The notes under the pieces were generated by a model. That model had not been told where the DNA came from. It made no database searches and worked only from the letters and a program-made list of their open reading frames with translations. A stretch of 41,543 nucleotides of DNA from the IMG/VR virus record IMGVR_UViG_2917413769_000002, positions 1 to 41,543 of that record. One strand, 5' to 3'. The position numbers were made by a program, and so were the translations under genes. Shown in pieces: positions 30,293 to 37,802 of this stretch. The stretch's first letter is position 1; every line of letters begins with the position of its first letter. This DNA comes from a virus. Its lineage: Duplodnaviria > Heunggongvirae > Uroviricota > Caudoviricetes.

Positions 30293-30420
30293 TATCAACC
30301 CCTTTACGTTTCACTCTTCCAGGAAAAACCTTTCCCGATTTCTTACCCGACCAACTGCGCATCACCTTGCTAGTACAGTGGCGATTTTGGGCTCTGTCTC
30401 TGAGATCAGCACCTACCTAA

Positions 30421-30620
30421 CCAATGGAGCTGCCTTCTGGAAAAGGCCTATTCCCATCCCTCTCCGATCTCCCCCCTTACCCCCCTCTTACCTCTCCCTT
30501 ATTCATGTACTAGATAGCTAGTACAATCAGGCGTAAAAAAAGTAAGTGGGTGGTCCCAGCTTCATCAGCAGCTGACGCCTTTAAGTCAGACTGCAACCAG
30601 GCACCTTTAAGCCCGGTATC
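30421..30620. promoter_or_regulatory. candidate origin / early-promoter region with repeats
   Basis: ~50-nt polypyrimidine tract with CTTAC-type repeats (30445-30500), perfect inverted repeat TGTACTAG-ATAG-CTAGTACA (~30488-30510), two CCTTTAAG copies. Confidence 0.35.
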
Positions 30621-30621
30621 G

Positions 30622-30915
30622 TCAGGCGCGCTGTTGCGTTCCTGCCAGAGGCGGCTGGGCCGTGTAGCCCTGAATTGCCCGCCCGTGTGTTTCAACGAAC
30701 CTGCGAAGCCTCACGTTGGCTTCATGCCTTGCCCGGTTCTCCCTGCGGTATGTAACCGGCTCGGCGTCAAACGTGATTTCGTAAACCTCTGCGTACTTCA
30801 GCGCGACTTTGCGGCGGAGGGACGGAGGCAAACTCAGTAACTGCTGCTGGATCCACGCTGCATCTGCCTGGCTGTAAGCCAATGGCAGATCAACCTGCAC
30901 ATAATCCGGGTACAT
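30622..30915 (-). CDS. hypothetical protein in the cII position
   Basis: 97-aa ORF from ATG 30915 with GGAGG 4 nt upstream; immediately downstream of cro; basic C-terminal region. Confidence 0.45.
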   Translation of the reverse strand: MYPDYVQVDLPLAYSQADAAWIQQQLLSLPPSLRRKVALKYAEVYEITFDAEPVTYRRENRARHEANVRLRRFVETHGRAIQGYTAQPPLAGTQQRA

Positions 30916-30932
30916 ATCGCCTCCGGGGCATG

Positions 30933-31193
30933 TCACACCTCGCTTTGCTCTGCGTGACTTGTTCCGCGTAACGTTTCAGGTAGTCCGTCATCAGTGCTTG
31001 GATATAAATCAGGGCGAATTTCATGTGGAATGACCTTCCAGCCCGTCAACTCACAGAGCTGTAATACAAATCGAGGCGGGATAACTGACTTGCTAAACCA
31101 CTGATTTACTGCCTGAGGCGTGATCCCTAACCCTTTAGAGATAGCGCGCTGAGAGAGCAATTCCCCCAAACGAGAGCGAACGATTTCGTTCAT
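30933..31193 (-). CDS. cro: Cro-like / YdaS-family HTH repressor
   Basis: 86-aa ORF divergent from cI; HTH ...ISKGLGITPQAVNQW...; SD GGTGA upstream of ATG 31193. Confidence 0.7.
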   Translation of the reverse strand: MNEIVRSRLGELLSQRAISKGLGITPQAVNQWFSKSVIPPRFVLQLCELTGWKVIPHEIRPDLYPSTDDGLPETLRGTSHAEQSEV

Positions 31194-31200
31194 AAATCAC

Positions 31201-31289
31201 CATCAAGTTAAATTTGATATTGAATGTAATATATCAAGTTTTAATTAACATGCAACACAAACACTTCTCATGTAGACTTGATATCAAGG
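31201..31289. promoter_or_regulatory. OR-like operator region between cro and cI
   Basis: three sites sharing ATCAAG/CTTGAT half-sites: ATCAAGTTAAATTTGATAT (31201-31219), TATCAAGTTTTAATTAACAT (31231-31250), perfect palindrome CTTGATATCAAG (31276-31287). Confidence 0.65.
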
Positions 31290-31345
31290 ATTGCTTTATT
31301 TTTATGCGTGATAATCTTGCGAGTAACCGACAAACTGGGAGAGGT

Positions 31346-31919
31346 TATGGACACCACAAACACGATCAACGAACTGCTAAAAATGAAGGGCTGGACTCAG
31401 CGAGAACTGGCTCGCAGGCTCAATGTCAGCGCCCAATCAGTTCAATACTGGACAACGGGGAAAACATTCCCAAGAGGTAAGCGACTTGCGCGGCTTTCGG
31501 AGATCAGCGGTCTCCCGCAATCATGGTTTCTTGGCGAGAAACAAAGCACGACTTTCCCTGCGGCCGCTGCACCAGATGAGCAGACTGATAGCGTTACTTT
31601 TAAGGTTCTTGATGTTGAATTCAGTTGTGGTGATGGGACGAGTGTAAAGGGGGACTTTGTTGATGTTGTCAGGTCAATAGAACTTGATCCAGAGTACGCC
31701 CGCCAGCTCGTAGGTAATAGACCATTCAAAAATATCGAGATAGGTAATGCTCGTGGGGACAGCATGTGTCCCACTATAGCCCCTGGAGACCTACTATTTC
31801 TCGATAAAACAGTTACATACTTTGATGGTGACGGGATCTACGCTTTCTGTTTTGATGGGGAATGTTATGTAAAAACGCCTGCAAAAGGTTGGCACAAAAA
31901 TAGTGGTCTTATCCGATAA
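31346..31919 (+). CDS. cI: CI-like repressor (HTH-XRE + S24 LexA-like peptidase domain), 3' end frameshifted; intact frame would end at 32025
   Basis: SD GGGAGAGG before ATG 31346; HTH ...WTQRELARRLNVSAQSVQYW...; S24 motif GDSMCPTI; removing one A from the A5 run at 31871-31875 restores ...YVKRLQKVGTKIVVLSDNANY... including the canonical VKRL. Confidence 0.8.
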
Positions 31920-32038
31920 TGCAAACTATCAAGCATGGAATATAGAAAAAGAAGCATTAAACATGCTCTACATCCAGTCAAAAGTAATATCCTCTGTTCC
32001 TTTCAACATCAATAGATTTGGATAATTAATTGATTTAT

Positions 32039-32056
32039 AACGGGCTTGTGCCCGTT
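32039..32056. other. stem-loop AACGGGC-TTGT-GCCCGTT downstream of cI
   Basis: perfect 7-bp inverted repeat; not followed by a clean U-run on either strand, so not called a terminator. Confidence 0.4.
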
Positions 32057-32074
32057 ACCTCGCTGTCTTCGCAT

Positions 32075-32154
32075 ATCATCAAGAAAATAATCAAGTTTAA
32101 CTTGACACAAATCTCATCTGGTCATAACCTCTAATCATCAAGTTAATCTTGATT
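32075..32154. promoter_or_regulatory. OL-like operator region upstream of the early-left operon
   Basis: palindromes CAAGTTTAACTTG (32092-32104) and ATCAAGTTAATCTTGAT (32138-32154) use the same CTTGAT half-site as the cro-cI operators. Confidence 0.6.
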
Positions 32155-32202
32155 AACTTAAACCAATGCGACACTACCGTGTTCATCGATTAGGGGAAGA
32201 AA

Positions 32203-32589
32203 ATGGATACTCTCAATAATTCGCTTAATAAAGCGCAAGCAGTCCTAAGCTCTCTCTTTGAAGCCTGCCACGAAATTGATATTTCTGAGATAGAAACAAA
32301 TCTGTCAGTCATTAATGCTTACTTATGTGATGCCATAGAATCTATTTCCAAAGGCGAAGGTAAGGGGATTACTCGCCCTACAGATAAAGAGTGTGATGAC
32401 GGCTATGATGATATATTTGGTGCGGTTGTCACTGCAGAAAAACGTAAAGAACTTACACATATATATTCTGAGAATTATTTCACAGATAAAGATAGTGACA
32501 ACCCATTGTGCCTTATGGCTTCAGTCATATTTGATTACGTAATAAAAATAAATGGCGAATTAAAAGCCATCAAAGAAAAGCTCAACTAA
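32203..32589 (+). CDS. hypothetical acidic protein, first gene of early-left operon
   Basis: 128-aa ORF in an AT-rich segment downstream of the OL-like operators; not N-like (acidic, no Arg-rich motif). Confidence 0.45.
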   Translation: MDTLNNSLNKAQAVLSSLFEACHEIDISEIETNLSVINAYLCDAIESISKGEGKGITRPTDKECDDGYDDIFGAVVTAEKRKELTHIYSENYFTDKDSDNPLCLMASVIFDYVIKINGELKAIKEKLN

Positions 32590-32774: not shown

Positions 32775-33602
32775 ATGAAAAAGGTTATTTTCGCTGTTCT
32801 GATTTCCGCCGCCGCTGCTGGCCTGACTGGCTGCGATCGTGTCGAACCCGGCAACGTAGGTATCAAGGTGAACAAGCTGGGCGACGACAAAGGCGTTGGT
32901 GAGGTTGTCGGCGTTGGCCGCTACTGGACCGGCTGGAACACGGAGGTCTACATCTTCCCGACCTTCAAACAGATGAAAACCTACGACGACGCGTTCAATT
33001 TCCAGATGAGCGACGGTACGACAATCGGTTATCACATCGGCGTGGCGTACAAAGTTGATCCAACCAAAGTTACCACCGTTTTCCAGACCTACCGGAAAGG
33101 CGTGGACGACATTACCGATACCGACCTTCGACAGAAGATCGCCGATGCGCTTAACCGTCTTGCCAGCCGCATGAGCACCGACAAGTTCATTGATGGTGGT
33201 AAAGCGGATCTGCTGGAAAGTGCCCTGAAAGAGATCCAGTCCGACATGGGGCCGGTCGGCATTCAGGTTATTAGCCTCTCCTATGTTGGCCGTCCGGAGT
33301 ACCCACCGACTGTTATCGACAGCATCAACGCCAAAGTCACCGCCAACCAGAAGACGCTGCAGCGCGAGCAGGAGGTGAAACAGCGTGAAGCTGAAGCCAA
33401 CATGCTGCGCGCGGAAGCGGATGGCCAGGCAGACGCAAAACTGAAGCTGGCAGAAGCCGAAGCGAAATCTATCCAGATCCGTGGGCAGGCCATGCGTGAA
33501 AACCCCGAGGTGCTGCAGCTGGAAGCCATTAACAAATGGAACGGCACCCTGCCGCAATACATGACCAGCGGCGCTGGCACTCCATTTATCCAGGTTAAGT
33601 AA
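32775..33602 (+). CDS. SPFH / band-7 (prohibitin-like) domain lipoprotein
   Basis: N-terminal lipoprotein signal ...AAAAGLTGC; SPFH-like core followed by an Ala/Glu/Lys-rich coiled-coil (...QREQEVKQREAEANMLRAEADGQADAKLKLAEAEAK...). Confidence 0.7.
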   Translation: MKKVIFAVLISAAAAGLTGCDRVEPGNVGIKVNKLGDDKGVGEVVGVGRYWTGWNTEVYIFPTFKQMKTYDDAFNFQMSDGTTIGYHIGVAYKVDPTKVTTVFQTYRKGVDDITDTDLRQKIADALNRLASRMSTDKFIDGGKADLLESALKEIQSDMGPVGIQVISLSYVGRPEYPPTVIDSINAKVTANQKTLQREQEVKQREAEANMLRAEADGQADAKLKLAEAEAKSIQIRGQAMRENPEVLQLEAINKWNGTLPQYMTSGAGTPFIQVK

Positions 33603-35484: not shown

Positions 35485-35667
35485 ATGAGTACAGACTTCA
35501 TGACAGAACAAGAGGTTTCTGAGTTGCTTCAGAAAAAAAGAACAGCTTTATATAACCTCAGAAAAAAACATGGTTTCCCTGAGCCAGTCCTCACCCACCC
35601 AGCGAGATATAGCCGCAAAGCCGTGGAAAACTGGATCAGTGCAGGCGGAGTTAACCGAGCTGTTTAA
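35485..35667 (+). CDS. AlpA / excisionase-family HTH protein
   Basis: 60-aa ORF; position next to and convergent with the integrase. Confidence 0.6.
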   Translation: MSTDFMTEQEVSELLQKKRTALYNLRKKHGFPEPVLTHPARYSRKAVENWISAGGVNRAV

Positions 35668-36820
35668 CGTGCCAGAGGATTTTATCAGCATACAGCTCGT
35701 AAGCTGCTTTCTGCTCAGGTAACCAGTCGTGTTTATTATACACGGCCATCACCCCGCCAAGCTCGTGCCCCAGCATCTTTTCGGTGACATGGGGCATCAC
35801 CCCTTCTGCAGATAAATTCGTTACCAACGAACGGCGGAAATCATGCGTTCGCCACTCCGGGATATCGATTTTACCTCTCAATTTTTTCATATAGAGATTT
35901 GACGACGAACGGTCTATAGCGCGGTCAAGCGTCTGTCCGGGAAACAGCACAGAGTTCCCACTATTCAGCAGCCGCTCAACATAGGGTTTAACCTGGTCAA
36001 AGATAGGCCGTCGGATGACATTTCCCATCTTGGAATGCTCAGATGGAGTCGTCCAGATCAGATCATCCATATTGAACTCATCCGGCGTTGAAAGCCGCAG
36101 CTCAGATAAGCGTGGTCCCCAGAGCAATAGCAGCTGGTGCAGCACTTTATTGGAGGAGACGATCTTGTTATTTTCCAGTGCCAGCCAAACCTTCGCCAGT
36201 TCGGTGTATGTTAACACCCGCTCACCGACGTCAGGCTTCTTGCCTATGGTTTTCACACTTAACTTCATCAGCTCGCATGACGGAACCAACTGCCGGCTGA
36301 TGCACCAGTTAATTACCGAGCGTAGCTGTAACAGCAGAACGCGCGCTTTCTTTTTGTTCAGGCTTTCCTGTTTATCGAAAAAACGCACCCATGCAGAAAC
36401 CGGTACATTCGCCACTGGCGCATCTTCAAATTGTGTGTACATCGTGTTGTACACGACCGATTTATAAAGCGTCTGGGTGTTGGGCTTCAGACCGGATGCA
36501 TACTTATCCCACCACTGATCAAGGCATTCTTTGAGTGTCAGCTCGCCATCTTCACGGGCAAAATAATTTTTGGGGTTCACACCCTTCGTGTACAATGCGC
36601 GCATCTCACCGACGATAACCCTAGCGTCCTTGAGGGATGTCGAAGGATAGCGGCCAACCGTCAGGCGCACTGGTTTACCGTTCCATCGATAACGATACTG
36701 AAAAGTGATTGTGCCAGTTGGCGTGATCCGGGCACTGAGACCATCACCATCGGTGATTTCTGGTGCCGCAGAATACGGTTTACCGTTGATGCTCCGTAGT
36801 TTAGTGTCGCTGAGTGCCAA
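35651..36820 (-). CDS. int: P4-type tyrosine integrase
   Basis: C-terminal catalytic region ...WRTHDFRRS...GHELGGVMAVYNKH...; N-terminal ALSDTKLRSI...KPY... block typical of P4-family integrases; likely TTG start at 36820 (ORF track extends to 36931). Confidence 0.8.
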   Translation of the reverse strand: MALSDTKLRSINGKPYSAAPEITDGDGLSARITPTGTITFQYRYRWNGKPVRLTVGRYPSTSLKDARVIVGEMRALYTKGVNPKNYFAREDGELTLKECLDQWWDKYASGLKPNTQTLYKSVVYNTMYTQFEDAPVANVPVSAWVRFFDKQESLNKKKARVLLLQLRSVINWCISRQLVPSCELMKLSVKTIGKKPDVGERVLTYTELAKVWLALENNKIVSSNKVLHQLLLLWGPRLSELRLSTPDEFNMDDLIWTTPSEHSKMGNVIRRPIFDQVKPYVERLLNSGNSVLFPGQTLDRAIDRSSSNLYMKKLRGKIDIPEWRTHDFRRSLVTNLSAEGVMPHVTEKMLGHELGGVMAVYNKHDWLPEQKAAYELYADKILWHVKQLG

Positions 36821-37015
36821 TGCGCTATATCCTGTACACAAGGGTTTCAGGCATTCTGTACTCAATCTGTACTCAATGGCAAGTGAACGAACGCAAATAT
36901 CAGCATAAACAAGCTGGTAAATGATGAACAAAGACGCACTTACATCTTGATGTCAAAGCAGTAAAGGCGGTAGAATCAGCATCACGGTGAACAACCAAAA
37001 ACATCGCCGATCAAT

Positions 37016-37090
37016 GTCCCCTTAGTTAAATGGATATAACGAGCCCCTCCTAAGGGCTAATTGCAGGTTCGATTCCTGCAGGGGACACCA
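37016..37090 (+). tRNA. argW: tRNA-Arg (anticodon CCU), argW-like
   Basis: 75 nt: 7-bp acceptor stem GTCCCCT/AGGGGAC, T-arm GCAGG-TTCGATT-CCTGC, anticodon loop CTCCTAA, 3' CCA encoded. Confidence 0.9.
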
Positions 37091-37250: not shown

Positions 37251-37802
37251 ATGCTCACCGTTAAGCAGATTGAAGCAGCAAAGCCGAAAGAAAAACCATA
37301 CCGCCTTCTCGATGGTAATGGCCTGTACCTTTATGTTCCTGTATCCGGGAAAAAGGTATGGCAGCTTCGCTACAAGATTGACGGTAAGGAGAAAATCCTG
37401 ACCGTCGGAAAATATCCGCTTATGACTTTGCAAGAGGCAAGGGATAAGGCATGGACCGCGAGGAAAGATATCTCGGTTGGCATAGATCCGGTAAAGGCGA
37501 AAAAGGCTTCGTATAACAACAATTCCTTTAGTGCGATTTACAAGGAATGGTACGAGCATAAGAGGCAAGTATGGTCAGTCGGCTATGCGACTGAACTTGC
37601 CAAAATGTTTGACGACGACATTTTACCTATCATCGGCGGTCTTGAAATTCAGGATATTGAGCCGATGCAACTTCTTGAAGTAATCCGCAGATTTGAAGAT
37701 CGCGGTGCAATGGAGCGAGCCAACCTTACTATATCTCGAATAGCACAAAGCCTTGCAATCCAGTGCAAAGCTTTGTGTGTCTCAGTTTTGTCTTACGCTT
37801 AA
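37251..37802 (+). pseudogene. truncated P4-type (IntS-like) integrase, N-terminal ~180 aa only
   Basis: starts 161 nt downstream of the tRNA 3' end in the same orientation; N-terminal KPYRLLDGNGLYLYV...GKK.W block; ends where AT-rich DNA begins. Confidence 0.7.

Follow-up and report, generated by a model that had tools for sequence, protein, structure and literature searches.

Predicted CI/Cro operators of a lambda-type prophage immunity region conserved among Enterobacterales

Genes of the immunity region and their prophage setting

The locus lies within a 41,543-nucleotide stretch of DNA (matching contig PDIL01000012.1 of GCA_004745435.1), referred to here at its full length as the window, which is the prophage of an integrated temperate myovirus and, with its integrase gene, tRNA-Arg(CCT) and structural genes, looks complete. 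The structural genes are related to those of Yersinia phage YP3 (88% identity over 63% of the first 25 kb) as well as to those of Salmonella phage SEN34. At the other end, the integrase gene (35651–36931, minus strand) is located beside tRNA-Arg(CCT) (37016–37090). Just past this tRNA, a second, truncated integrase-like open reading frame (ORF) is present at 37251–37802 on the plus strand, which suggests that a different element also used this tRNA as its attachment site and left a remnant there.

The immunity region itself is organized around two divergent genes, in the order cro, OR, cI, a hairpin, OL with its promoter PL, and the early-left operon. The cro-like gene (30933–31193, minus strand), identified as an ORF with profile and PDB matches, encodes 86 amino acids and is the first gene of the early-right operon, where it is followed on the same strand by a phrog_852 ORF and then by genes for a helicase and a primase. 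The cI repressor gene starts at 31347 and runs to 32025 on the plus strand, and the first gene of the early-left operon, a 128-aa ORF assigned to phrog_27579, lies at 32203–32589 on the same strand; the same 128-aa gene also comes after cI in the closest relative (L082). The gap between cro and cI spans 153 bp, and that between cI and the early-left operon 177 bp. Within the early-left operon, positions 32775–33602 encode an SPFH/Band 7 protein (Pfam 6.8e-31), the N-terminus of which resembles a lipoprotein signal (MKKVIFAVLISAAAAGLTGC); it may be an accessory gene expressed from the predicted PL, with a possible role in exclusion or defence. On the other side of cro, the phrog_852 ORF and the helicase gene are separated by a 320-bp gap (30299–30621) that holds three copies of CTAGTACA, one as a direct copy at 30370–77 and two forming an inverted repeat at 30506–30525, whose 8-bp arms match perfectly around a 4-nt loop. 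The inverted repeat is terminator-like on neither strand; the cluster might represent binding sites, an origin or an RNA hairpin.

The product of the cro-like gene is a small helix-turn-helix (HTH) protein that falls into phrog_35 and matches the Pfam families YdaS_toxin (1.8e-10, above the cut-off), P22_Cro (1e-4, with a score of 22.4 that is below the cut-off of 30.2) and HTH_3. Among solved structures it matches the Cro protein of a Xylella prophage (3bd1, E 8.5e-5), 5w8y (E 0.0015) and P22 Cro (1rzs, E 0.008). Its small size, its HTH domain, its homology to Cro proteins of solved structure and the first place of its gene in the early-right operon assign it to the Cro family. The CI protein combines an N-terminal HTH_3 domain of the five-helix Xre/434 type with a Peptidase_S24 domain that aligns to UmuD over the Ser and Lys motifs. 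Columns S139, K176, S93 and G95 are invariant in an alignment of 26 sequences, and the linker reads S93-C94-G95, so that CI carries the Ser139/Lys176 dyad and the Cys-Gly cleavage site of a self-cleaving S24 repressor. An AlphaFold model of an intact relative (P0001, 93% identical) displays five N-terminal helices and a beta-rich C-terminal domain, and its fold matches LexA, UmuD' and the lambda and 186 repressors (3bdn, 1f39, 8gmu). Thus, the flanking genes are those named in the original prediction, namely a Cro-family HTH gene on the minus strand divergent from an HTH_3 and Peptidase_S24 gene on the plus strand.

In the window, the cI frame is broken just after Lys176, where a run of five A's is found at 31871–31875, whereas the same run has four A's in the closest relative, which shares 92% DNA identity. 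The repaired product is 225 aa long, and intact 225-aa relatives are 79–93% identical to it. An independent assembly (L090, run SRR8835199) encodes an intact 225-aa CI and, when one unaligned base at each end is set aside, is identical to the window over 3.26 kb except in the A-runs at 30535 and 31871. The frameshift is therefore probably a homopolymer error of the window assembly, since the independent assembly lacks the extra A. A programmed frameshift was also considered and rejected, as relatives and the independent assembly have an uninterrupted frame. Other genes of the window may carry homopolymer errors as well.

A 17-bp dyad in the two intergenic gaps

The informative unit of the region is a 17-bp dyad, ATCAAG-N5-CTTGAT, with the fuller consensus ATCAAGTTnAACTTGAT. 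Five putative operator sites are built on it, three (A, B and C) between cro and cI and two ahead of the early-left operon. The centres of the two hexameric half-sites are 11 bp apart, or approximately one helical turn, which fits an HTH dimer touching successive major grooves on one face of the DNA.

The dyad is far more distinctive than its half-site. While the bare hexamer is weakly enriched in the window (31 occurrences versus 22 ± 4.7), the dyad with up to three mismatches has 35 matches versus 17.9 ± 4.3 in shuffled sequences, none of 100 shuffles reaching 35. With at most one mismatch, four matches are found in 41.5 kb versus 0.085 expected from Markov-1 simulations, and all four (31202, 31283, 32090 and 32137) fall within the two intergenic gaps. 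When simulations were given the intergenic composition, the probability of at least one site with at most one mismatch was 0.0016. We also scored the window with a weight matrix derived from the sites of relatives alone, with the window left out and B sites not used. The five sites have the five best scores in the 41.5-kb window (25.3, 25.2, 20.9, 19.0 and 17.6), and the sixth-best score, 14.5, is inside the shuffle range. The motif search across the prophage that had been proposed as a check thus places the five dyads above every other position of the window.

Site A, with the sequence ATCAAGTTAAATTTGAT and one mismatch to the dyad, is predicted at 31202–31218 (score 20.9, conservation 0.84), where it abuts the cro ribosome-binding site and covers approximately +4 to +20 of the predicted early-right promoter, PR. 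Site B, ATCAAGTTTTAATTAAC, at 31233–31249 has three mismatches (score 17.6, conservation 0.94); its left half is consensus, while its right half, AATTAAC, is non-consensus yet almost invariant. B fills the spacer of the predicted PR, is centred at approximately -44 from the start of the candidate cI promoter, PRM, and is embedded in an invariant block, ATCAAGtTTnAATTAACATGCAAG, which includes the PR -35. Site C, ATCAAGGATTGCTTTAT, at 31283–31299 has one mismatch (score 19.0, conservation 0.83) and precedes the cI start codon by 48 bp, lying at approximately -2 to +15 of the candidate PRM; in relatives its right half is the non-consensus CTTTAY. On the far side of cI, the predicted OL-distal operator, ATCAAGTTTAACTTGAC, spans 32090–32106 with one mismatch (score 25.3, conservation 0.93), and the predicted OL-proximal operator, ATCAAGTTAATCTTGAT, spans 32137–32153 as a perfect dyad (score 25.2, conservation 0.95).

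All the sequence strings on which the original prediction had drawn are present, with ATCAAG at 31202, 31233 and 31283, CTTGATATCAAG at 31277–31288, CAAGTTTAACTTG at 32092–32104 and ATCAAGTTAATCTTGAT at 32137–32153. The claim of three sites with ATCAAG/CTTGAT half-sites between the divergent cro and cI genes agrees with A, B and C, which are conserved in 44 distinct relatives. Both palindromes reported downstream of cI stand as sites, with CAAGTTTAACTTG re-parsed as the core of the 17-mer ATCAAGTTTAACTTGAC. By contrast, the perfect palindrome CTTGATATCAAG that had been singled out between cro and cI does not hold up as an operator. Rather, it consists of the left half of site C and an adjacent, non-conserved CTTGAT (31277–31282), which is variable in relatives, the remaining 43 distinct sequences having CTTGAG, CTTGAA, CTTAAA, CTAAA or ATGAAA at this place. 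In addition, the half-sites of the palindrome face outwards and are 6 bp apart from centre to centre, a geometry at odds with the 17-bp dyad. A possible third OL site, marked by ATCAAG at 32078–32083, is kept in the closest relative only and so was not counted. LexA and IHF boxes were likewise considered for the sites, which match neither consensus.

A generic promoter and terminator scan of positions 30800–32400 reported no promoter, because its 4-of-6 rule excludes the conserved -10 hexamers TAACCT and TAGACT, which match three to four of six positions. An Rfam search returned nothing relevant. Promoters were instead called with our own weight-matrix scan over the aligned relatives. The predicted PL on the plus strand consists of a -35 TTGACA (32102–32107), a 17-bp spacer and a -10 TAACCT (32125–32130) that matches three of six positions only, with a start at approximately 32137. 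It is the top-scoring plus-strand promoter at the same aligned column in all 56 distinct relatives, where CTTGAC is invariant and the pattern is TTGAC(n)-17/18-TAnnnT. The two OL sites bracket this TTGACA-17-TAACCT arrangement, the right half of OL-distal supplying the -35 and OL-proximal covering approximately +1 to +17.

The predicted PR on the minus strand has its -35 TTGCAT (ATGCAA on the plus strand) at 31250–31255, present in 43 of the 44 distinct sequences, and its -10 TATATT at 31228–31233, which is an extended -10 with TG at 31236–31235; the start would be at approximately 31221. These two hexamers flank site B. In relatives, the -10 is placed 16 or 18 bp from the -35, and the matrix scan calls PR at this position in 34 of the 44. 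The six bases of the PR -35 double as a poor -35 position of the candidate PRM, abutting B. For this cI promoter, we suggest a -10 TAGACT at 31273–31278 on the plus strand and a start at approximately 31285. TA-n-A-n-T occurs at the aligned position in 44 of 44 distinct sequences; the candidate PRM is nonetheless the least certain element, with several rival -10 candidates in the matrix scan, and its placement is tentative and could easily be wrong.

Following cI, a hairpin, AACGGGC-TTGT-GCCCGTT, is located at 32038–32057 on the plus strand (-13.7 kcal/mol, z -2.9). It is conserved in relatives and was not called by the terminator scan. Many relatives have a T-run after the hairpin that is absent in the window copy. 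The hairpin is the likely cI terminator in those relatives that have the T-run, whereas in the window phage cI transcripts may read through into OL and PL, as the hairpin there has no T-run.

Conservation across relatives and covariation with the repressor

Only one match was found in the phage database, Klebsiella phage ST16-OXA48phi5.3 (MK416014), whereas an IMG/VR scan with the repaired CI recovered 80 loci with repressors that are 78–84% identical. Across the approximately 80 related prophage loci, the sites, the distances separating them and the promoter hexamers are preserved, while the intervening DNA has drifted. Within the sites the majority-base frequency is 0.83–0.95, compared with 0.43–0.57 between them, in footprint alignments of 44 distinct OR and 56 distinct OL sequences. 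The sites occur at matching offsets in 65 distinct versions of the region, with the OR sites upstream of cI and the OL pair, in most loci, 64–67 and 111–114 nt past the cI stop. Start-to-start spacing is fixed at 30/31 bp from A to B, 49/50 bp from B to C and 47/48 bp from OL-distal to OL-proximal; OL-proximal begins 47–48 bp after OL-distal in 79 of 79 loci in which both OL sites are matched. By this comparison, the five predicted 17-bp dyads are phylogenetic footprints.

Intact CI homologues of 224–231 aa are found in the protein database in Salmonella, Cronobacter, Klebsiella, Citrobacter, Leclercia, Atlantibacter and Pantoea. An exact-pattern scan over one genome per species revealed the OL pair in Pantoea, Pseudocitrobacter, Citrobacter and one further Enterobacteriaceae genome, and in the Pantoea locus cI is directly upstream of the OL pair and accompanied by matching OR sites. 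None of 5,426 complete Escherichia coli genomes gave a megablast match, and within the sensitivity of that search they lack this immunity type. The geometry of operators and promoters is conserved across many Enterobacterales prophages. Two IMG/VR groups (L043–L047 and L062–L079) have ATCAAT, not ATCAAG, in the OL left halves and ACCAAT in site A, and their OL pair is located 51–53 and 98–100 nt past the cI stop. The CI recognition helix of these groups, SAQSVQYW, is unchanged and the Cro N-terminus differs; this subgroup may have a slightly shifted specificity or reflect affinity tuning.

The recognition helices of CI and Cro share the pattern xxQxVxxW (SAQSVQYW in CI, helix 29–37 in the model, and TPQAVNQW in Cro), which fits the two proteins reading one operator. 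Because these helices barely vary in the close family, where CI has S-[AT]-Q-[ST]-V-x-Y-W and Cro has TPQAVNQW or in some cases SPQAVNQW, we sought covariation further out. Repressors that are approximately 40% identical through the C-terminal domain (L085–L087) have other N-terminal domains and other dyads, and no ATCAAG-N5-CTTGAT with up to two mismatches was found near their genes. Among 80 further loci, an upstream CAAG-N5-CTTG is absent in 14 of 16 DNA-binding-domain types. Repressors with the helices SPQSVQYW or RPQSVQFW, however, have AACAAG...CTTGAC, TTCAAG...CTTGAA or TACAAG...CTTGTA upstream: the locus with SPQSVQYW (L083) carries AACAAGTATTTCTTGAC and AGCAAGAAAAACTTGTA, and the nine loci with RPQSVQFW (the L096 group) carry TTCAAGTTTTTCTTGAA and TACAAGAAAACCTTGTA. 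A single CAAG-N5-CTTG dyad is also seen in one locus with an unrelated DNA-binding domain (L113). The CAAG core thus travels with the DNA-binding domain of the repressor and not with its C-terminal domain, and this covariation, seen in two outgroup clades, is indirect support for recognition of the sites by CI.

Proposed switch and comparison with known systems

Taken together, the region is very likely an immunity switch governing lysis and lysogeny, in which a LexA-like CI and a small Cro, divergently transcribed, are both predicted to bind ATCAAGTTnAACTTGAT as dimers. With OL-distal over the PL -35 and OL-proximal over the PL start, bound CI would shut the early-left operon, and with B in the PR spacer and A just past the PR start it would shut cro, replication and the late genes. 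B, at approximately -44 from the likely PRM, would occupy the position from which lambda CI at OR2 activates PRM. C, over the start of the cI promoter, would be a likely Cro target and a site of CI autorepression, like lambda OR3, and SOS-induced self-cleavage at Cys94-Gly95 would lift repression. We infer the identity of the binders, their order of affinity, the transcription starts and the activation and autorepression steps from sequence and comparison. The OL sites are 47 bp apart, corresponding to 4.5 helical turns, and B and C 50 bp apart, which does not suit lambda-style cooperativity between adjacent operators. It is conceivable, although doubtful, that the switch is wired unlike that of lambda, with B as a core operator common to two back-to-back promoters with coincident -35s, and with A, C and OL-proximal as roadblocks past the starts. 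Repression might then depend on looping between OL and OR over approximately 0.9 kb, since OL has only two sites, 4.5 helical turns apart.

Several other explanations of the sites can be weighed against CI and Cro binding at all five dyads. Only the OL pair and A might be operators, with B and/or C being kept as promoter spacer, UP-like sequence or a site for a host factor such as IHF, the core of which, WATCAA, resembles the half-site. The non-consensus right halves of B and C are themselves conserved (AATTAAC and CTTTAY), and B lies inside the invariant block ATCAAGtTTnAATTAACATGCAAG together with the PR -35, as would be expected for this arrangement. However, the left half of both sites is still a perfect ATCAAG and the 17-bp register is intact, B has the fifth-best score of the window under a matrix made without B sites, the full IHF consensus, WATCAANNNNTTR, is not found in most relatives, and imperfect operators of graded affinity are the norm in lambda-type switches, such that we regard a reduced set of operators as unlikely. 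There is less still to recommend dismissing the dyads altogether and regarding the hexamers as by-products of promoter -35 elements (TTGA...) that overlap in intergenic DNA rich in AT. TTGA is indeed contained in CTTGAC and CTTGAT, OL-distal supplies the PL -35 and the bare hexamer is mildly enriched in the window, but a -35 is not needed past the -10, where OL-proximal forms a perfect 17-bp dyad, and on the transcribed strand the ATCAAG left halves serve no promoter function. Such by-products would also leave the dyad symmetry, the fixed N5 and the covariation with the DNA-binding domain unexplained, and simulations with intergenic composition yield sites with at most one mismatch too rarely (P = 0.0016), making this the least credible of the explanations considered.

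The identity of the small gene bears on whether Cro shares the operators with CI. Its best Pfam match is named YdaS_toxin, and it could in principle act as a toxin or regulator of the YdaS type within a cryptic-prophage module, in which case the sites would serve the S24 repressor only. This is highly improbable, given that the product is an HTH protein matching solved Cro proteins, that the replication operon begins with this gene, in the position of Cro, that the recognition helix resembles that of CI and that the prophage, with structural genes, integrase and tRNA-Arg, looks complete. We therefore favour the five dyads as operators that both CI and Cro are predicted to recognize.

The layout can be compared directly with that of lambda. 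As in lambdoid switches generally, the repressor and cro genes are divergent and separated by a short gap, this gap holds several dyads of the same consensus, and an OL set is located beyond cI. More specifically, the arrangement resembles lambda in that cI and cro diverge from a tripartite OR, that a further operator set is found past cI at an early-left promoter transcribed in the cI direction, that the predicted operators are 17-bp dyads with a graded match to the consensus, that the repressor is composed of an N-terminal HTH and a LexA-like S24 domain and that, by inference, one operator is placed at approximately -42 to -44 from the maintenance promoter. In contrast, three adjacent operators per set with centres 23–24 bp apart, as in lambda, are not seen here: OL has two sites separated by 47 bp, the distances between OR centres are 31 and 50 bp, the outer sites are placed past the predicted transcription starts, and the -35 positions of the two promoters fall on the same bases. 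Of the lambda-like OR/OL layout in the original prediction, the gene order, the tripartite OR and the second set at PL are thus retained, whereas the number of OL sites and the spacing are not those of lambda. Further differences are that the operator sequence is unrelated to lambda operators of the TATCACCGCCGGTGATA type, that Cro is of the all-helical P22/Xfaso type and does not have the lambda Cro fold, that rex genes are absent from the interval between cI and OL, and that the virion is that of a myovirus related to YP3 and SEN34.

A similar mixture of shared and distinct features is observed with 434 and P22. The N-terminal domain of CI is a five-helix Xre-type domain as in these phages, with 434 repressor (E 0.03–0.05) and P22 C2 (E about 1) as its best, albeit weak, phage matches in the PDB. 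Cro matches P22 Cro, and the mutual resemblance of the CI and Cro recognition helices is shared with 434, the half-site of which, ACAAG, resembles the TCAAG found here. However, the predicted operators of the window are 17 bp long, compared with lengths of 14 bp for those of 434 and 18 bp for those of P22, their number and spacing differ, and the sequence similarity is marginal; the window is not in the 434 or the P22 immunity group.

The closest counterpart is ST16-OXA48phi5.3, in which the immunity region has 73% DNA identity over cro and cI, the same five sites, spacing and promoters are present, and the two genes are annotated as 'repressor CI' and 'putative Cro protein'; the virion module is different. 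CI is 79–84% identical in this phage and in Enterobacterales prophages of the same immunity type. The paper describing ST16-OXA48phi5.3 makes no mention of operator, repressor or Cro, and none of the papers in the literature collection searched contains the operator strings. From sequence and comparison alone, the consensus of the predicted operators and the probable arrangement of the promoters are defined for one immunity type, common to prophages of Klebsiella, Citrobacter, Cronobacter, Salmonella, Pantoea and relatives, and can be used for annotating such prophages, predicting homoimmunity between them and designing reporter or induction experiments. The understanding of lambda-type switches is unchanged, the geometry of operators and promoters being the sole mildly unusual aspect. 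Function and layout are supported as those of a lambda-type CI/Cro switch, and what is new in relation to the known systems is the predicted, previously undescribed operator specificity of a widespread Enterobacterales prophage immunity group.
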